In this document: one piece after another, positions 27,959-62,651 of the stretch
Numbering within the stretch: the first letter of the stretch is position 1
Layout: every line of letters begins with the position of its first letter
Assembly: GCA_965649765.1 (NCBI GenBank)
Contig: OZ287757.1
Coordinates: 47,306,001 to 47,370,000 of the forward strand
DNA from: Bispira polyomma
Lineage: Eukaryota
Direction of reading: 5' to 3'
DNA: 64,000 bases
The notes under the pieces: generated by a model
Databases searched by the model: none
What the model was told of the DNA's origin: nothing
Seen by the model: only the letters and a program-made list of their open reading frames with translations
Made by a program: the position numbers and the translations under genes

Positions 27959-28946
27959 GTTAAATCTGTTTTAATATGAATTCTAGTTATCTTGTAGTTA
28001 ATGTCTTTTGAAGTACCAAACTTTTAAACCAGGGGTGGTATTCTCGGCAAAAGTGACAATTCATTAATTACTTCCATGTCAAGTATTTGTCTTCATTTTT
28101 TTTTTGGCTTAATGAGACCCACGTGTAATATTCTCGATGAAATGTTTATTATTACTTATGGTGTAGAATAAAAACTTGCTAAGAATTCAAGTGAGAAAAC
28201 TAACATGCTCCGTTAAATGGTACTATATTCATTTTAGCACAAAAAGTTAGAGCTGAGGAAAATGGACTGTAATAAGTATATTTAACAAGTAAAAAGAAAA
28301 GTGTTGATTCTAAATGAAACAAAAAAGCAAGTGGAGTTAATTTCTCTTTTCATGAGAACAGCACTTTACTTACTAAAAGCCTGGTTACACCTACACGTGC
28401 TGGAGCTACATGTGTGTGACGTTTTGAACTGTCTTGAAACGTAGTAAAAGGTAATGCAAAAGTGAGGATCCCTGCCACGTTCGTTCTGTGATGTTGCTTA
28501 AACGTCACCATTTAGTCCAATGCCATGATTACTTCAAACTGTTTGAAATAATCGTGGTAGAGCTCTCCATTTCTTGAGGACATCTCCACTCATCTGTATA
28601 AGTAGCATAACATAGCAGTAAGAAGCAGTAAGTTACAGCAGGTAGTAGTAGGTAGTATCACATCTGTATTCGTCGTGGAACGTTTCACCAAATAACAGAA
28701 CGCAACCAAACGCAGCAGTAAGTAGCAGTACAGTAGCTCTACGTAGTAGTAGGCAATGATATCCTACCAGTAATGTGTTCGATTTATGCCCCCGCTCCGT
28801 GTGTATAAGTACCAACATCATCATTGGACAGGTAATATTTACACTAGAGTCTTTTGTTAGTCGTGATATATTTGACCCTCAAAATATCACAGAAAAATTA
28901 TAAAGCTTAATGTACATTGAATGGTCTGGAAATCTCACAAGCATGC

Positions 28947-29728
28947 TAAAACATCAAGACTTTATTGCTATTAAAGTACAAATATCAGGACTTTATTGCT
29001 ATTAAAGTACAAATAACAGGACTTTATTGCTATTAAATTACAACATCAGGACTTTATTGCTATTATAAGTACAAACATCAGAACTTTATTGCTATTGTAA
29101 GTACAAACATTAGGACTTTATTACTATTAAAGTACAAACATCAGGACTTTATTACTATTAAAGTACAAACATCAGGACTTTATTGCTATTAATGTACAAA
29201 CATCAGGACTTTATTGCTATTAAAGTACAAATATCAGAACTTTATTGCTATTAAAGTACAAACATCAGGACTTTATTGCTATCATAAGTACAAACATCAG
29301 GACTTTATTACTATTAAAGTACAAACATCAGGACTTTATTGCTCTTAAAATACAAACATCAGGACTTTATTGCTATTATAAGTACAAACATCAGGACTTT
29401 ATTGCTATAAAAATAGAAATATCAGCACTTTATTGCTATTATAAGAACAAACATCAGGACTTTATTGCTATTAAAGTACAAACATCAGGACTTTATTGCT
29501 ATTAAAGTACAAACATCAGGACTTCATTGCTATTAAAGTACCAACATCAAGGCTTTATTGCTATTAAAGTACAAACATCCGGACTTTATTGCTATTAAAG
29601 TACAAACATCAGGACTTTATTGCTATTAAAGTACAAACATCAGGACTTTATTGCTATTAAAGTATAAATTTCAGGACTTTATTGCTATTAAAGTACAAAC
29701 ATCAGGACAAATATCGGGACATAATTGC
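28947..29728 (+). repeat. 31-bp minisatellite, ~25 units
   Basis: Direct tandem repeats. Confidence 0.95.
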
Positions 29729-30058
29729 CATTATCTTACACCAGCTGTCTAATACTTGGGTATGACATGAGCCCTTTGTGACAGTCTCATAGATAGTTTG
29801 TACAAAACATGACACACAGGAGAGGTGTATGGCCAACAAGGATTGGTTGAAAGCAAATGACCCTGCAAAACTGAGGGGTGTCAGCTTGATAGTATCAGGT
29901 GCTATCTGATATTGCCGCCATGTTGGAAGTAATATGTAAGGCTTTCATGGATTGGTTGGAAGCAATCGACCTAGCTAAACTGATAGGTATCAGATTAATA
30001 TTTATCACACTGCTCACCTGTGTCTTTTTACAAATCTTGTTTTCTCTGGTATTTTCAG

Positions 30059-30122: not shown

Positions 30123-30489
30123 GTATTTGGTAGTATTTGTAATACGCTACAGTCAGTCTGTGTGGTCAATAATGTGCTTCTAGTACCCTGATAACGGTTA
30201 AAAGTTAACTGTACATGTCTAGGTTTCGAATCCGGTTATCACCCCATATAATGAGGTCTCACCTGACTACAATTTGCTCACCACAAGCCTGGGTTCTCAC
30301 ACCTCTCCACCAGTTGTTCACTCTCCACTCTCTGAAGAAGCATATATACTATCAATGCTGCCACACATGGGGCAATGATTATAACACTGCCCATTACAGG
30401 CAATCTACCCATGCATTCACCTTCTTTTTAAGGGAAGAAGTCAATGTAAAAACAGATTTATTAAAATGTTGTTAATAGTTACAACGTTA

Positions 30490-31153
30490 CATTGTTATAC
30501 ATTAAGTATTACTACATTGTTACACATCAAGTATTAATAAATTCAATTATTAATACATTGCTACACATCAAGTATTATATATAGCTACACATCTAGTATT
30601 AATATATTGCTATACATCAATCATTAATATATTGCCACACATCAAGTATTAATATACTGCTACACATCAAGTATTAATACATAGCTACACATCAATTAAT
30701 AATACATAGCTACACATCAAGTATTAATACATAGCTATACATCAAGTATTAATACATAGCTACACATCAAGTATTAATACATAGCTATACATCAAGTATT
30801 AATACACAGCTACACATCAATTAATAATACATAGCTACACATCAAGTATTAATACATAGCTATACATCAAGTATTAATACATAGCTACACATCAAGTATT
30901 AATACATAGCTATACATCAAGTATTAATACACAGCTACACATCAAGTATTAATACATAGCTACACATCAAGCATTAATACATAGCTATACATCAAGTATT
31001 AATACACAGCTACACATCAAGTATTAATACATAGCTACACATCAAGTATTAATACATAGCTATACATCAAGTATTAATACATAGCTACACATCAAGTATT
31101 AATACATAGCTATACATCAAGTATTAATACATTGCTACACAACAAGTATTAAT
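30490..31153 (+). repeat. 25-bp minisatellite, ~26 units
   Basis: Direct tandem repeats; tac/tat variants alternate in a 50-bp higher-order pattern. Confidence 0.95.
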
Positions 31154-31430
31154 CCTGTCTGACAAGTTATCCGACCTTGTGTCTCAGTCAACTTCATAAC
31201 TGATCGAGTGTTTTTGGTCTAACATTGGCCAAAATAGTAAGTTATTGGCACCCAAATAATCACCATATAGTCTAGAGTAATGTTTTACACAGGCCACACT
31301 AGGCTCAAAAGGACAAACTTGTGTGGAAATCGATTTGATGTGATTTAGGTATAACATCGCTTTCAACATATTTTATAGGTCATATCACAACATGCAATAT
31401 ATACTAGTTGGTCAATGTTGTACACTCTAA

Positions 31431-31537: not shown

Positions 31538-31941
31538 TAAGGCCCTACACTTTTTGTGGAGTACCTTGTGTGGAGTACATTGTCCAAGGCTACAATCTCC
31601 AACCCAATTTAATATTACTCGTTCACCTTCGAACACAGCGGATAGAATCAACCCTTCCCTTGCTTTTCTAGGATCCACAGTAGTGTACTTGCTAACCGAA
31701 TTGAGAAAACGAGAAAAACACTAAATAGAATCCCACTACAGTTAAACCCACTACAGTTAAATCCCAAAAGTTGTTGTTTAATGTTCATACAATCTTATAT
31801 GTCTGTGTGGAACTATTCTGGAAGTCACTGCATAACTTGTATTTGGTGGTACTTATACTTAACGTTAAACCCTTACAATATAACACTATAGACTGATAGT
31901 CAGGAGAACTACTTCTAAAGTCCACTGTGTCTAGTATATTT

Positions 31942-32152
31942 TGATAGTCACTGCATTAAGCATGGCTTCTCAGTCGCAGAAATTTCATATATTACAGTAA
32001 TGCTGATAAACAATTTGTTTACTGAGACAGCAGCCTATTAGAACACTTACTGATAGCCAATAGCAGGCTGGTTCACTCAGGCATTTTGCCGCCCTTTCTA
32101 TTGTGAGGGCATTGCAAAACTAGAAGTTGAATAAGCAACAACTAAAATTTTG
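31942..32152 (+). repeat. Ngaro split direct repeat A1 (211 bp)
   Basis: Identical by eye to 37691-37901. Confidence 0.95.
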
Positions 32153-32340
32153 AAAGAAACGACGCCATCTTGTCAATAGAAAAAAGTTGGCAAGATTCAG
32201 AAGAGTTTTACAAGTTTTAGTGTTTTATTAATTTACTTATACATCTTATACCATTTTATTTTATACACAAGTGTTTATCATATACAAGGAGGGTGTTAAA
32301 CGGATTATTACATTGTTGTGAACAAATCCTATGACTCATC

Positions 32341-33792
32341 ATGGGCAGAGGTAAGAAGCGTCAACCTGCTACAAGCATAGCTTCGTGTTCTCGATGTGAC
32401 ATCTCACATACCAGACCTGTTGGGAGCAGATGTAAACGTCAATTAGTGTCGGACGAAATAGGAGGCTTGCAGAGCGATTCCGTAACTACACAAGACCACG
32501 AAACTTCGATAAGCATGAGCGAATCTGGCACAGCCGTAAGTAGTGATTCTTTCTACCGGGACGCGTTTCATGAACAACAGTCCATGATGAATAACATTTT
32601 AAAAACAGTGTCAAAATTACAAGAAGATATGTCCGCCCTGAAAGAAAATAAAACCCGCTTATGTCCCATGAGTCCTGACAAAACTACAGCTGAATCAGAT
32701 CAACAAGGTTCAGGTCCACTGATCCGACAGAAGTTTAATAGGCAGTGCAGAAGTAGCACACAAGGGCGTACACAGCCTCAGGGTACACTTCGCAGAGATT
32801 CTCGTCTACCGATTCCAGATTTCTACAATGACGTACCTCCACATTCACATAACCGTGCACAGAATACACCTCAGTCAGCAGCATTACTACCCACACCAAG
32901 CATCGTGTCTCAGGGGCAGAACCTATTCAATACGACGTCTCAGAGACTGCTTCCAAGTGAACAAGGTCCACAACAAGCGGGTTGCACAGGTCTTCAACCA
33001 CATCACAACACGACTGCACACAATGCCTTCTCACAACAAGCGTCAAACCACACACAAAGAGCAATGCAAGATTCGATCATCCCATCTACAGACGTACTTC
33101 GGCAGTCCTCGTTAATACAAAACGAAGTAAGCAGACGATTGGCCCAGTATGACAGTTGGTCAAGCAGCGACTACATTCAGGGTAAGTCAACTAAGAAAAA
33201 GTCGGGAAGGTACAACATTTCAGAAGTTTGCATATCCGACCCAATAGTACGTTGGCCGAATGAGGGAAATTTAGCGGGGGTCTCAAAGAAACGTATCGCA
33301 TACGATGAACTCACAGTAGCACAATTTGGCGCGGGTCAAATTCAGAACATTTTACAAGTTCAAAACCAGGTCATAGCGACAGCTATGCTAAAACAGCTAG
33401 GTGATTCATTAAGAGACAGTGCCAACCTATCCTGGCAAGTCGCGCGGGGCGCATACGCCTGTAGTATGCACGATGTGGAAGAGGGAAGGCTGTGTTGGAC
33501 GGATGAACACAAATGGGCGATGAATCGCCTGTCCTACTCCCAAACGTTGATTTCAAATCCATCCGGAGCATCAAATTCCACTAACGCGTCTGGTAACAAA
33601 CCCGAGATTCCATGTCGACATTTTCAAAAGAACACTTGTCAGCACAAAGGTGACCACGAGGGCCACTCAACCGTCTTCAAGCACATCTGTGCTAATTGTT
33701 TCCGCATTTCCAGACGACAGAATCCCCATCCGGAAACCAAGTGTTTCAAAATACATGGGAAACCAGAGGTCAACACGACGCACACTCAATAG
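32341..33792 (+). CDS. gag: Ngaro ORF1, Gag-like (483 aa)
   Basis: N-terminal CxxCxxxH..C motif; C-terminal Cys/His fingers (CRHFQKNTC...H, HICANC...H...C). Confidence 0.9.
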   Translation: MGRGKKRQPATSIASCSRCDISHTRPVGSRCKRQLVSDEIGGLQSDSVTTQDHETSISMSESGTAVSSDSFYRDAFHEQQSMMNNILKTVSKLQEDMSALKENKTRLCPMSPDKTTAESDQQGSGPLIRQKFNRQCRSSTQGRTQPQGTLRRDSRLPIPDFYNDVPPHSHNRAQNTPQSAALLPTPSIVSQGQNLFNTTSQRLLPSEQGPQQAGCTGLQPHHNTTAHNAFSQQASNHTQRAMQDSIIPSTDVLRQSSLIQNEVSRRLAQYDSWSSSDYIQGKSTKKKSGRYNISEVCISDPIVRWPNEGNLAGVSKKRIAYDELTVAQFGAGQIQNILQVQNQVIATAMLKQLGDSLRDSANLSWQVARGAYACSMHDVEEGRLCWTDEHKWAMNRLSYSQTLISNPSGASNSTNASGNKPEIPCRHFQKNTCQHKGDHEGHSTVFKHICANCFRISRRQNPHPETKCFKIHGKPEVNTTHTQ

Positions 33793-33954
33793 GACGGGAA
33801 ACCGCATACAGACACCACTGCTGCACGCATAACTCAAACATCTCGGAGAGGCACAGAATGGGACACAAGTATCCAGCATGATGACTTTGAGCATAAGTAT
33901 AAAATTGAAGGGAAAGACGTTGAGATATATTTTAATGAGTTAGGTAACAGTTCT

Positions 33955-36492
33955 ATGGACACTACTAGCTGTGTAATAACCAAGAGTAAAACAAACGTTT
34001 TGCAAATTAACACAGTACAACAGACAGAATCTATATTTGATGATCATATGTTAAATCTAAAAGACGTTAATTTAGTCATCAGTAATGTAAATCAACAAGT
34101 GACTAGTGGTAGTGATATGTGCAGTGACAAGACTCGATCTGACTCTATGAACAATTGTAGTAGCAACTCCATGTCAAAAGTAGATAGGAGTAGTGTTGAT
34201 GTATATTTTAGTTCATATATATCCAGTTTGGATGGATATCACTTATGTTATATTGTATGTAATGATAAGAGGCACATTTCAGGAGTGTACACCTGGACTA
34301 ATGTGTGCGGTCGAGTGTCTCTACATAAATCTGACTGCACTGTGGCTAATATATGGCCAGTAACATTTTACACAACAATGACAATAGATGTCATTGAGAC
34401 AAAAGCCAAACACTTCACAAATGCAACACGTTTAAAACAACACACAAATAAACAGATTCGACAGAGTATCACACACACACGAACAAAGACAAATAAGGCT
34501 CAATATTATTTGGACATTATTGATGAAATATCTAGAGCAGTTCACCAAGGTACACAAACACAAACAGAAGACAACATTGACACTCGACTAGTCAAACGAA
34601 AAAGTATAAAATCAGTAGACACAAATGAACATGTTGCCAATTTTGATGACATTGAGATACTACAGAATTTGATTATAAATGACCACATTGATGCATTAGG
34701 TGACACTAATACAAAAAAAGAAAACAAATTGAAGATAAAAGTGATAATGGACAACAGGACTTATGGTTTTATCACACACGAAGAAGAAACTTTCAATTTT
34801 GTTGGACCAGAGAGACAGACAGTTGACATTGACTCATACGATAAGTTAATTAAGGTGGCTGAGATGATAAAACAAACAAACTTACCAAATTACAGAATGG
34901 CAAGAATACCAATTAAGAGTAATCTTAATGTGAGTAATTGGAAGAAATATCTAACCAATTACCCAAACCAGAAATTACTTGATTACATACAATTCGGATT
35001 TCCCATTTCGCTGTATGAGCGAGACAGACTGAATGTAAAAGATATCAAAAATCATTTCTCAGCCTTCACCTTCCCAAATGTGGTAGACAAGTATTTCACC
35101 ACAGAAATAGAAAGAGGCACAATAATAGGACCAATAAATCAAACTCTTCACAAGGACATACATTGTTCTCCCCTTATGTCTAGGCCTAAAGACAATAATC
35201 AGCGCAGATTAATTCTTAACTTATCTCATCCTTTAGGCAGATCAGTAAATGATTGTACCGTAAAGGACAAATACGACAACACCGACTTTGACTTAAAATT
35301 ACCGACTATTGACCAAATTACCACTTACATTAAATTTTTAGGACCTAAGGCCACCTTAGCGAAATTGGACATAGCCCACGCATTTCGAAACTTACGTGTT
35401 GACCCTCTTGATTGTTTAAAACTAGGTTATGTTTGGGAAAATCAACACTTTATTGATCTAAGTCTTACTTTCGGACTCACCCATGGCACGTCTATCTTTA
35501 TGATGGCATCAGACGCAATTACTTACATCATGACAGAAAAAGGTTTTAAAGTATTTAACTACATCGATGATTACATTATTGTAGAAAAAGAAGATAAGGC
35601 CACCTTAGCCTATGAAACCTTACAAAGGATTGTAACTGAACTTGGTCTACCCATCAATCCCAAGAAATTAGTCCCCCCTAGTAAAAAGGTCACATGTATG
35701 GGCATAACAATTGATATTGCACACGCAACTCTCAGTATTGACGAAGAAAAACTCAATTCAATATATGACATTTGTGTCACATTCAGCTCATTAAGGAAAG
35801 TACCTAGGAATAAGTATCAATCATTATTGGGTAAACTCCTGTATATACAGAGGTGTGTGAAACATTCACGCATATTTATGAATCGGATGCTTACAGTACT
35901 ACGAAATTCCAAACATAGCAAATGGATAAACTTAACGGACGAGTTTCATAAGGACCTGAATTGGTTCTTACGTTTCTTAAAAGAATTCAATGGTACTACA
36001 AAGTATAGCATTGAAAACCAACACTATGACATACTATTTCATGGTGACGCGTGTCTCTCCGGCATAGGTGGCGTGTGGGATAAGAAAGTTTTTCAAACAG
36101 CGTTACCAATGTTTTTAACAGAATCACTATCTATAGTACACTTTGAAATGATCTGCGTACTATTAGCATTGAAATTATGGGGTAAACATTGGCAGAACAA
36201 ACGAATTAAAATCAAATCAGATAACATGGCAGTGGTTTCTGTAGTGCGGTCGCTAAAAACTAAAGATAAATATTTAAGCTTATGTTTGAGAAACATTTGG
36301 CTACTCTGTGCAAAATACAATATAGACCTCTTAATAGAACACATACCAGGTAAAGACAACGTTATTGCAGACTGTTTATCTCGTTGGCATGAATTAGGAC
36401 ATTATGGACAAAAAATGAAGGACTTGATTAAGGAAAATTTTGAAATGTACAATATACCACTAGACATGTTCCTAATGGACACTTTAATTTGA
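33955..36492 (+). CDS. pol: Ngaro ORF2, reverse transcriptase and RNase H (845 aa from the first ATG)
   Basis: RRLILNLS, KLDIAHAFR, LTFG, YIDD; RNase H motifs DAC, FEM, SDNMAVV and HIPGKDNVIADCLSR. Confidence 0.95.
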   Translation: MDTTSCVITKSKTNVLQINTVQQTESIFDDHMLNLKDVNLVISNVNQQVTSGSDMCSDKTRSDSMNNCSSNSMSKVDRSSVDVYFSSYISSLDGYHLCYIVCNDKRHISGVYTWTNVCGRVSLHKSDCTVANIWPVTFYTTMTIDVIETKAKHFTNATRLKQHTNKQIRQSITHTRTKTNKAQYYLDIIDEISRAVHQGTQTQTEDNIDTRLVKRKSIKSVDTNEHVANFDDIEILQNLIINDHIDALGDTNTKKENKLKIKVIMDNRTYGFITHEEETFNFVGPERQTVDIDSYDKLIKVAEMIKQTNLPNYRMARIPIKSNLNVSNWKKYLTNYPNQKLLDYIQFGFPISLYERDRLNVKDIKNHFSAFTFPNVVDKYFTTEIERGTIIGPINQTLHKDIHCSPLMSRPKDNNQRRLILNLSHPLGRSVNDCTVKDKYDNTDFDLKLPTIDQITTYIKFLGPKATLAKLDIAHAFRNLRVDPLDCLKLGYVWENQHFIDLSLTFGLTHGTSIFMMASDAITYIMTEKGFKVFNYIDDYIIVEKEDKATLAYETLQRIVTELGLPINPKKLVPPSKKVTCMGITIDIAHATLSIDEEKLNSIYDICVTFSSLRKVPRNKYQSLLGKLLYIQRCVKHSRIFMNRMLTVLRNSKHSKWINLTDEFHKDLNWFLRFLKEFNGTTKYSIENQHYDILFHGDACLSGIGGVWDKKVFQTALPMFLTESLSIVHFEMICVLLALKLWGKHWQNKRIKIKSDNMAVVSVVRSLKTKDKYLSLCLRNIWLLCAKYNIDLLIEHIPGKDNVIADCLSRWHELGHYGQKMKDLIKENFEMYNIPLDMFLMDTLI

Positions 36493-36500
36493 TTTCAGGA

Positions 36501-37478
36501 ATGACAGAAACAGCTAGACCTCTCTTGACAAGTGCAGTCCAGAGAATTAGACAGTGTCACAGACCCAGAACTACTAAACAATATAACAGCCAGTTTAGAT
36601 TATTCCTGGCCTTCACAGTATACTACCAGCTGAATGAAACATTCAGTTTCAATACCATTATTACATTCATGGAATATCTAGTACAATCTGGAGTTTCACC
36701 CAAAGTGATAAACAACTACTTGTCAGCGATACGTCATACTTGCAAATTTCTTAACATTACTGACAAAGGTCTTTATGATCAAAGATTACCACTGTTTCAA
36801 AGATCAGTCGAATTATCCTCAAGATTTTCTCCCAAGGTCAAAGGTGTCTTCGACCTTCACCAATTGATAGAAATTTCAAAAACATGTGAAATTCTTCATT
36901 GCCCTGAATTATTCAGAACAGCGTTTTTGGTTGCATATTTCGGATTCCTGCGAATCTCTAATTTGACTACAACTTCCGGATACCCATTTGACCCAACTAG
37001 ACACATTACCAGGGATGACTTGGTATTTGCTCACCCTGGCATTCATTTGATTCTAAAGTGGTCGAAGACGAATCAGACCAGATCACATACAGACATAATT
37101 TAACTTCCCGCTCTTAGCAACCCTTGGCTTTGTCCACTCACTGCTGTCAAGAAATTATTTCAAAAATTTCCAATGTCAGGGAAAGCACCATTATTAGCTG
37201 ATCCTTCAGACAAAGATAAATGCCTTTCAGATACAAAGCTCAGGATTGCTTTAAAACGCATACTGACACACATAAACATACCTCATGAAGGACACTCATT
37301 TCATTGTTTCAGACGATCAGGCGCATCACTAGCCTTCAATTCAAATATACAACTGCAACATATCCAGAAACATGGGTGTTGGAAATCAGATGCAGTTTGG
37401 TCCTACCTACAATCCACTTCTCATGCCGCCTCCATCATCCCTTCCACCTTTGCTTCCATCATTTCTTCAAAATTTTAA
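36501..37478 (+). pseudogene. Ngaro ORF3, tyrosine recombinase with one in-frame stop (TAA 37101-37103)
   Basis: FGFLRISN (R), KWSKTNQ (K), HCFRRSGA (HxxR), HGCWKSDAVWSY (W, Y); the two ORF-track pieces are in the same frame. Confidence 0.9.
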
Positions 37479-37486
37479 TTTGGCCT

Positions 37487-37690
37487 TGGCATTTTAAAAA
37501 TTTTAAATTAGAAATTTTATGTACAGATGTATATACAAATTAATGAATTATGAATAAATTTATCCCAAACTGCATCCGATTCTCATCTACCAAACAGACC
37601 CACACCATCATTATGACCTTCACTATTAGATAAAGGTCAAACTTACCTCTCTGACCCTTCATGGTCACATTCAAACATTTCATGAGACTG
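37487..37690 (+). repeat. Ngaro split direct repeat B1 (204 bp)
   Basis: Matches 37966-38153 apart from a 16-bp indel. Confidence 0.95.
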
Positions 37691-37901
37691 TGATAGTCAC
37701 TGCATTAAGCATGGCTTCTCAGTCGCAGAAATTTCATATATTACAGTAATGCTGATAAACAATTTGTTTACTGAGACAGCAGCCTATTAGAACACTTACT
37801 GATAGCCAATAGCAGGCTGGTTCACTCAGGCATTTTGCCGCCCTTTCTATTGTGAGGGCATTGCAAAACTAGAAGTTGAATAAGCAACAACTAAAATTTT
37901 G
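37691..37901 (+). repeat. Ngaro split direct repeat A2
   Basis: Matches A1. Confidence 0.95.
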
Positions 37902-37965
37902 CCCAAACCACCCTCCCCCTTTTTAGATTGTACTAATGTATGTATCATATGGGTTATTTTACGTA

Positions 37966-38153
37966 TGGCATTTTAAAAATTTTAAATTAGAAATTTTATG
38001 TACAGATGTATATACAAATTAATGAATTATGAATAAATTTATCCCAAACTGCATCCGATTCTCATCTACCAAACAGACCCACACCATCATTATGACCTTC
38101 ACTATTAGATAAAGGTCAAACTTACCTCTCCATTCAAACATTTCATGAGACTG
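37966..38153 (+). repeat. Ngaro split direct repeat B2 (188 bp)
   Basis: Matches B1. Confidence 0.95.
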
Positions 38154-61134: not shown

Positions 61135-62651
61135 CTTGTCTGACAAGTTATCCGACCTTGTGTCTCAGTCAACTTCATAACTGATCGAGTGTTTTTGGTC
61201 TAACATTGGCCAAAATAGTAAGTTATTGGCACCCAAATAATCACCATATAGTCTAGAGTAATGTTTTACACAGGCCACACTAGGCTCAAAAGGACAAACT
61301 TGTGTGGAAATCGATTTGATGTGATTTAGGTATAACATCGCTTTCAACATATTTTATAGGTCATATCACAACATGCAATATATACTAGTTGGTCAATGTT
61401 GTACACTCTAAGCCAGTGACCATCGGCAAGTAAATGCCAAATTTTCCACTTACAGCCCTGGCCGAGATTCAAACTGGGACCTCAGAGGTTGGAGGTCTGT
61501 GTGTTAGCACTGCGCCACTAAGGCCCTACACTTTTTGTGGAGTACCTTGTGTGGAGTACATTGTCCAAGGCTACAATCTCCAACCCAATTTAATATTACT
61601 CGTTCACCTTCGAACACAGCGGATAGAATCAACCCTTCCCTTGCTTTTCTAGGATCCACAGTAGTGTACTTGCTAACCGAATTGAGAAAACGAGAAAAAC
61701 ACTAAATAGAATCCCACTACAGTTAAACCCACTACAGTTAAATCCCAAAAGTTGTTGTTTAATGTTCATACAATCTTATATGTCTGTGTGGAACTATTCT
61801 GGAAGTCACTGCATAACTTGTATTTGGTGGTACTTATACTTAACGTTAAACCCTTACAATATAACACTATAGACTGATAGTCAGGAGAACTACTTCTAAA
61901 GTCCACTGTGTCTAGTATATTTCAATTATATTTTCATGGTTCTGTTCCGAATGAAGTGTGCACCCTAAGGTAAAATTTAACCCTTTTAATCCTAAGAGAA
62001 AAATATTGCCAGGAACTGAAGGGAATTTTTAGGTAATCGGCTACACATAGCTGTACCACCGACTACTTCCAGCATTCAATAACAGTCTTGCATATGGGAA
62101 AATAATATTTTGGAGGTCTTGACTGCTGGTCGGCAGACATACGGGTCAAAAGGGTTAAACATAACAAAATTACATCGGTTGGTTCACTGGTACAAATATA
62201 GATTCCAGCATAGTAGTGTTTGCGTCAACCAATATTAATTTTCACAAGAAGCGTTGGCTGCTTCTCAGTCATCGTAGTGGACAACACTAAATCGGAGGTA
62301 AAATTAGAGGTTTTAAAATGTGTACAGCAGTCCAATACAATGTTGTAGTGTTTGTATAATTTGTTTCATTTCTACTCTTGATAAAGCAAATGGCTGAAGC
62401 TTTAAACTGTAGCAGAAAATATATATTCTGTGAGAAGAAACTCTATTCGCTAAAACCAAAATTATTTTTTTGTAAAAAAAAATTTCTCAAACAAAAATCA
62501 AACCTCTTAACTCTCAAATCTAAGTATAATGCTACATTTACCTTTTGAATATACATTACATTATCATAATCTAAAAAATCCCTTTAAAAGTACACACCTT
62601 GATTTATGTTGGTATTCTTTAGTATTTACTGTCATTTTCTTTATATTTCAG

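Follow-up and report, generated by a model that had tools for sequence, protein, structure and literature searches.

Conserved splice sites suggest that the recombinase of a Ngaro-type retrotransposon in Bispira polyomma is expressed as a Gag fusion

A Ngaro-type tyrosine recombinase (YR) retrotransposon of 6212 nt lies in a 64,000-nucleotide stretch of the Bispira polyomma genome (GenBank assembly GCA_965649765.1, contig OZ287757.1, positions 47,306,001 to 47,370,000 of the forward strand), hereafter the window. Its three open reading frames (ORFs) encode Gag, Pol with reverse transcriptase (RT) plus RNase H, and the recombinase. The YR is probably translated from a spliced RNA in which a donor in the middle of gag (D2) is joined to an acceptor directly upstream of the YR, yielding a fusion of the N-terminal part of Gag to the recombinase. 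That the YR is reached by splicing is very likely, judging from the comparison of related sequences, and there is good reason to regard D2 as the main partner of the YR acceptor. Conservation sets the YR acceptor and the mid-gag donor clearly apart from chance, which does not extend to two further motifs, an early donor in gag (D1) and a proposed acceptor in pol. The ORFs and splice motifs of the window copy are the following.

32341..33792, plus strand: gag-like ORF1, 483 aa, ending in TAG; aligned with six related gags.
32348..32356 (junction 32350|32351), plus strand: early donor D1, GAG|GTAAGA, phase 1, 10 nt into gag; strong here, not conserved.
33179..33187 (junction 33181|33182), plus strand: mid-gag donor D2, AGG|GTAAGT, phase 1, after codon 280; conserved.
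33182..36498, plus strand: predicted intron of 3317 nt, spanning the C-terminal half of gag and all of pol.
33790..33792, plus strand: single TAG between gag and pol, which share one frame; readthrough candidate, with TGA in the same layout in six of six relatives.
33793..36492, plus strand: pol ORF2, 899 codons stop to stop, with a long N-terminal region, RT and RNase H.
34276..34284 (junction 34282|34283), plus strand: proposed pol acceptor, ATTTCAG|GA, ...CACATTTCAG|GA, phase 1; probably chance.
36473..36500 (junction 36498|36499), plus strand: YR acceptor, TTTCAG|GA, ...TTTAATTTGATTTCAG|GAATG, phase 1, with a branch-like CTAAT 26 nt upstream and a T-rich tract.
36499..37478, plus strand: YR exon or ORF3, ATG at 36501, Cre-like fold with an R-K-H-R-H-Y catalytic set; broken in this copy.
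37101..37103, plus strand: premature TAA inside the YR, at a column where the aligned relatives have a residue.

The four splice motifs had been placed at these positions, all in phase 1, by the original prediction for this DNA, and the sequence confirms them; as all four share the phase, any donor-acceptor pairing is in frame. Sites were ranked by simple generic scores. D2 and D1 rank first and second among the 81 GTs in gag, and the YR acceptor ranks second among the 388 AGs of the element. The pol acceptor is in phase, yet weak and unconserved, so that this part of the original prediction does not stand: the site falls outside the five best AGs of the pol N-terminal region and has no common position in the relatives, nor was any pol acceptor that could be shared with D2 found at a common position across the elements. 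Weak phase-1 AGs occur 30-74 codons upstream of the RT start in some elements, which is a lead only. A branch-point-like YTRAY word is present in 6 of 11 acceptors and was discounted, the word being too common.

The acceptor was compared across 11 related loci (L001-L011) with 31-39% YR identity, obtained by a metagenome scan from two assemblies; no related loci were found in the viral_contigs or genome_contigs collections. Ten loci retain the 5' end of the YR, L009 being the one that does not. In all ten, a phase-1 YAG|G or YAG|A with a pyrimidine tract is located 17-21 codons upstream of the RP.T motif, equivalent to 36498 in the window, where it ranks 1-10 among the 46-305 AGs per locus by the generic score. 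The best phase-0 and phase-2 sites of the same interval are lower-scoring or absent in each of the ten. Where the end of pol is present (eight loci), the acceptor is found 6, 24, 30, 54, 253, 334, 780 or 783 nt from the pol stop, and with a distance this variable the acceptor tracks the YR, not pol. The longer spacers, of 250-780 nt, are noncoding (L005 477-1259, L008 477-1256, L002 3618-3951, L004 3722-3974). L005 and L008, closely similar copies from a single family, differ in the acceptor, which is TAG in one and CAG in the other. Splicing as a route to the YR, as originally proposed, thus gains strong support from conservation.

The same signature can be followed in protein homologues. The anchor column is occupied by a residue in 187 of 269 homologues, and in 95 it is preceded by at least 22 residues; the rest were left out of the phase test. 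Many homologues resemble single-ORF calls that read through the acceptor. Phase 1 gave the best back-translation score in 85 of the 95 proteins, compared with 15-45 in five control windows inside the YR (Fisher test against the best control window, p=1.8e-10, with rows that are not independent). A p-value against an expectation of one third was dropped in favour of these control windows, as the phase-1 model is permissive. The back-translated acceptor signature was present in 86/95 proteins and, after clustering at 50% identity, in 30 of 35 clusters, while the control windows had a median of 0.11 and a maximum of 0.43. Good acceptor sites were situated 19-23 codons upstream of the anchor in 82 of 90 proteins, only 18 of the 90 having a Met between site and anchor. 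Furthermore, the residue before the Gly/Asp is S, T, A, P, L, I or V in 86/89 proteins, compared with 46% elsewhere in the YR. These are the residues coded by NYA, the set that a phase-1 YAG|G forces and that no protein constraint predicts.

For the donor, the comparison set consists of the six related loci with a full gag. Each of them has a phase-1 G|GTAA 12-17 codons past a conserved helix with the pattern R[LI]xx[LMY][DE] and upstream of K[SP]GR (AAG|GTAATT, AAG|GTAAAA, ATG|GTAATA, ATG|GTAACG, CAG|GTAATA and ATG|GTAATA, next to AGG|GTAAGT in the window), within a linker conserved in neither length nor sequence. The Gly codon at the donor is always GGT, compared with 43/125 for other Gly codons (p 0.0017 if independent), and phase-1 G|GTAA occurs at 6 of 2701 other codons, or about 0.065 per 30-codon linker. 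Joining donor to acceptor leaves an open frame in all five relatives that have both, with products of 458, 511 and 494 aa where the YR is complete. No G|GTAA matching the early donor is present among codons 1-40 of the six relatives, the exceptions being a poorer site in L004 (codon 36) and, in L009, a C|GTAAAT (codon 19). Conservation in related families had been named by the original prediction as a check on its sites; this check upholds the YR acceptor and the mid-gag donor but neither the early donor nor the pol acceptor. As the conserved donor is in the middle of gag, the expected product is a fusion of N-terminal Gag and YR and not a stand-alone protein, and the env-like strategy originally envisaged appears unlikely.

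In the Gag model, D2 maps to a low-confidence linker (275-316), right after a helix at 257-275 and before a helical domain (326-405) and C-terminal Cys/His fingers; the N-terminal part contains a Cys/His knuckle and a long helix (69-107). The AlphaFold model has a mean predicted local distance difference test (pLDDT) score of 53. Gag has no Pfam family and no clear Atlas match, and its fold found no Foldseek match at E 0.001; the best VIA match had a Z of 5.6 and a root-mean-square deviation of 3.3 over 80 aligned residues.

The YR itself is modelled with higher confidence (pLDDT 87.9), the top Foldseek matches being Cre (E 1e-8, template modelling score about 0.65). Alignment identifies R151, K189, H268, R271, H291 and Y302 as the catalytic residues, and the YRs of L002 and L004 score above the Pfam cut-off for Phage_integrase. 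In the Cre-like model the first helix (6-17) comes after the acceptor, which the ATG at 36501 follows by 2 nt; the same ATG is 8 nt past the pol stop (TGA, 36490-36492). The earlier statement that the YR does not overlap pol holds for this ATG-started ORF; taken from stop to stop, the frame of the YR runs from 36444 and shares 49 nt with the end of pol. Likewise, the predicted products are joined in frame as described, but the 329-aa MGRG-YR had overlooked the premature TAA, which ends the D1 product (MGRG-YR) at codon 205 and the D2 product (Gag280-YR) at codon 482. With its YR interrupted, this copy would need the enzyme of another copy.

The route to Pol appears to be a different one. In seven of seven elements a single stop separates gag from pol, which continues in the same frame, with 84-527 open codons until the conserved pol block (the stops of the relatives are located at L002 1122, L004 1562, L006 3007, L009 2566, L010 1317 and L011 2924). 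The other frames after the gag stop contain many stops, and in each of the seven elements 0 of 2000 shuffles stayed open; the bases following the gag stop are not conserved. The simplest reading, which this arrangement suggests, is a conserved stop-codon readthrough from gag into pol, and as readthrough would give Pol, a splice for pol would be unnecessary. Pol matches the Pfam families RVT_1 (E 8e-12) and RVT_3 (E 1e-5) and ends about 35 residues past the RNase H-like match. A methyltransferase was detected neither here nor in the pol of three relatives, for which Pfam gives only RT and RNase H-like families (E 0.01 here). The readthrough region of pol is Cys/His-rich (L006 3010-4700, L011 2927-3880), and the length before the RT start varies from 129 to 572 residues.

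A scheme for the expression of the element may be outlined from these features. The full-length RNA would serve as the genome and be translated to Gag and, by stop-codon readthrough, to Gag-Pol. Partial splicing from D2 to 36499 would remove 3317 nt and yield Gag(1-280)-YR, in which the Gag knuckle and helices are retained and the C-terminal half of Gag is replaced by the recombinase. The N-terminal part of Gag (knuckle, long helix and short conserved helix) could then bring the YR into the particle by Gag-Gag contacts. For Ngaro families broadly, it is somewhat favoured that one RNA gives Gag, readthrough Gag-Pol and a spliced Gag-N/YR protein that is carried into the particle by the N-terminal helices of Gag.

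Several observations weigh against this interpretation. The case is built on conservation. Contigs from three sequencing runs of one study, none of them recorded as RNA, cover 31900-37660 in 30 of 30 bins, and 0 of their 12 listed joints correspond to any predicted junction; as the contigs look like DNA and assembly loses rare forms, this says nothing about splicing. Support for the donor comes from six relatives out of two metagenome assemblies, some of them interrelated, and the motif was discovered in the very sequences used to count it. A stricter rule, taking the first Gly after the helix, gives 5/6, the L009 donor being located at the second Gly. The donors of the relatives are without a G at +5 and rank 1, 8, 1, 3, 2 and 11 among 54-87 GTs, and the early donor D1 is also strong in the window copy. 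Of the 187 anchored homologues, 92 have their first residue no more than 21 residues from the anchor, and for 33 of these the offset is 17-18. Their start codons may be ATG, GTG or TTG, so many families may, like this one, have an ATG just after the acceptor, with no Gag part needed. Two single-copy gene calls (P0001 and P0002) join pol and YR in one frame, and these two were all that a search for longer fusion proteins of 351-2000 aa yielded. No Gag-YR fusion proteins were found at 616-2000 aa, a range that exceeds the 458-511 aa predicted from relatives with a complete YR and is thus uninformative. Lastly, the recruitment of the YR to the particle by its Gag part is pure inference.

If the acceptor is real, its partner could mainly be D1 or a short leader exon, which would give an env-like, stand-alone YR with few Gag residues at most. 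D1 is the second-best donor of this gag and in phase, the ATG of this copy lies directly past the acceptor, and the 33 short homologues starting at offsets 17-18 fit such a product. However, a D1-like site is missing at the start of the six related gags, all of which keep D2, and relatives in which no Met follows the acceptor require a coding exon in phase 1, which D2 provides; this alternative is considered unlikely. An unspliced route to the YR, whether from an internal promoter or through leaky scanning or reinitiation at the ATG that lies 8 nt past the pol stop, agrees with the position of ATG 36501, right at the beginning of the YR fold in this copy. No element other than that of the window, however, has an ATG immediately following its acceptor: in L006 and L007 an ATG comes 5 codons upstream of the anchor, and none lies between acceptor and anchor in the remaining eight loci. 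In the YR frame of L001, L002, L005, L008 and L010 the first Met comes 6, 6, 15, 15 and 79 codons past the anchor, so that five of ten loci have no Met before RP.T, which makes reinitiation, the alternative offered by the original prediction, unlikely. The 253-783 nt spacers between pol and YR furthermore contain 5-22 ATGs, with 11-22 in some of them, which disfavours unspliced routes, and the pyrimidine tract and the YAG, both conserved, would have no explanation, making an unspliced YR very improbable.

A fusion of the YR to Pol by frameshifting or readthrough near the end of pol can be considered on account of the 49-nt overlap and the two pol-YR gene calls, and passages of PMC3783388 describe fungal Ngaro elements with a YR in frame or frameshifted relative to RT-RNase H. 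In L002, L004, L005 and L008, however, the acceptor is located 253-783 nt past the pol stop, with the YR frame opening only a short way upstream of it, and the sole slippery heptamer near the pol end of the window copy (A AAT TTT, 36435-36441) is immediately followed by a stop in the -1 frame. This explanation is considered extremely improbable. Nearly negligible, finally, is the probability that the motifs reflect chance or constraint at the protein level (Gly-Lys/Asn in Gag, Ser-Gly before the YR). TTTCAG-like words arise easily in AT-rich DNA, and the phase-1 protein model is permissive enough to reach 45/95 in controls. Neither accounts for the synonymous choice of GGT in six of six donors, for the chemically mixed, NYA-coded residues in 86 of 89 proteins, or for acceptors situated in non-coding spacers without an upstream Met.

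The limits of the element follow from an empty site at 61922|61923 in a tandem duplicate, where both flanks are joined exactly. Its extent and repeats are:

31942..38153, plus strand: whole Ngaro-type YR retrotransposon, 6212 nt, without target-site duplication; ends from the empty site.
31942..32152, plus strand: split direct repeat A1, 211 nt, 100% identity to A2.
37487..37690, plus strand: split direct repeat B1, containing AATAAA; 16 nt longer than B2.
37691..37901, plus strand: split direct repeat A2; the B1|A2 joint is a copy of the joined element ends.
37966..38153, plus strand: split direct repeat B2; the B repeats match over 165+23 nt and are 100% identical there.

The identical A repeats and the match of the flanks to the empty site indicate a young element. 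The insertion is clean (junctions 31941|31942 and 38153|38154), the joined element ends reading GACTG|TGATA and the target TATTT|CAATT, with no obvious short homology. The additional 16 nt of B1, absent from B2, are located at 37652-37667, and the 64-nt spacer between A2 and B2 (37902-37965) consists of a C run followed by a T run. The YR DNA coding HGCWKSDAVW (37373-37400) is 79% complementary over 28 nt to both B repeats (37565-37592 and 38044-38071), possibly reflecting RNA pairing, or chance.

By the structural definition given in PMC4157794 (layout and domains) the element is Ngaro-type; passages of PMC3783388, PMC9210276 and PMC8547959 (order DIRS) also define Ngaro-like elements. Gag, RT/RNase H and YR are all on one strand in the order A1-ORFs-B1-A2-B2, with the internal repeats 3' of the YR, and this arrangement, the Cre-like YR and the lack of a detected methyltransferase all match the Ngaro-like type. 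DIRS1-like elements have inverted terminal repeats together with an internal complementary region; no inverted repeat connecting the termini was found in the element, the repeats of which are direct. Split direct repeats are common to PAT-like elements and the element here, but the methyltransferase of PAT was not found in this pol by Pfam.

The element is present in only one unit of a tandem segmental duplication of about 23 kb (8597-29704 and 38156-59313, a 98% identical pair), with an older copy at about 90% (572-8404). An ORF that combines a signal-peptide-like start with GSP-rich repeats occurs in every unit (4664, 27590 and 57173). Minisatellites are located upstream of the element at 28877-29750 (31-nt units) and 30452-31251 (25-nt units). 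Among the relatives, L011 is terminally redundant (1-197 = 5686-5882) and assembles as a circle, and L006 has a block that is present three times (1-300, 866-1165 and 7353-7652); these are either collapsed repeats or circular DNA forms.

The mRNAs for retroviral and errantivirus env use a donor near the 5' end and produce a separate envelope protein. The route proposed here resembles env splicing in that a subgenomic RNA drops pol and moves a 3' ORF forward, as described for foamy virus env in the relevant passages of PMC7828637, but differs in having its conserved donor 130-280 codons from the start of gag and, as predicted product, an enzyme fused to Gag. Judged by a donor at the 5' end and a 3' ORF without Gag domains, D1 would fit the env type in this copy, but it is not conserved. 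The same source describes foamy virus Pol as a retroelement enzyme made from a spliced RNA via a suboptimal splice site; that Pol is Gag-free and includes RT and integrase, whereas here the recombinase alone would be spliced and would keep half of Gag. Ty1/Copia elements (Drosophila copia, Arabidopsis EVD) are described in PMC5580714 as having splice sites conserved within the family, and in Drosophila copia an intron of roughly 3 kb removes pol, as predicted here. According to these passages Copia splicing serves to make excess Gag, whereas in the present element the C-terminal half of Gag would be swapped for the integration enzyme. None of the three, foamy Pol, Copia gag or env splicing, yields a spliced Gag-integrase fusion.

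Among the papers listed by full-text searches of the open literature, a set outside which the primary Ngaro descriptions and Repbase lie, none describes spliced expression of the YR in DIRS-order elements in its title or at the beginning of its abstract; the string 'splic' has 0 matches in the main texts of PMC3783388, PMC9210276 and PMC3266345. Passages of PMC6681497, PMC9341512 and PMC8547959 were also compared. Those on splicing in PMC7192593 concern a reporter intron, PMC13465315 deals with introns in Crypton-type DNA elements in the part concerned, and the corresponding part of PMC4495291 with a DIRS gag co-opted by the host. The ORFs of Xenopus Ngaro are described as overlapping in the pertinent passage of PMC9210276, whereas here one stop divides gag from pol within a shared frame. 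The YR retrotransposon literature compared describes the ORF layout, not how the recombinase is translated. The element is of a known kind, and its conserved expression route is probably undescribed.

The conserved donor-acceptor pair makes the question of YR translation testable at a single junction in hosts with RNA data. If the proposed splicing is correct, it would account for the production of the integration enzyme in a little-studied group, the annotated ORF3 would be an exon and not a gene, and the real integration enzyme would carry a Gag extension of 130-280 residues. Annotations of Ngaro YRs that are based on start codons would then be wrong at the N-terminus, and biochemistry and engineering should use the fusion. 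A spliced Gag fusion, apart from Gag-Pol, would also add a route of integrase packaging beside those of retroviruses, foamy viruses and Copia.

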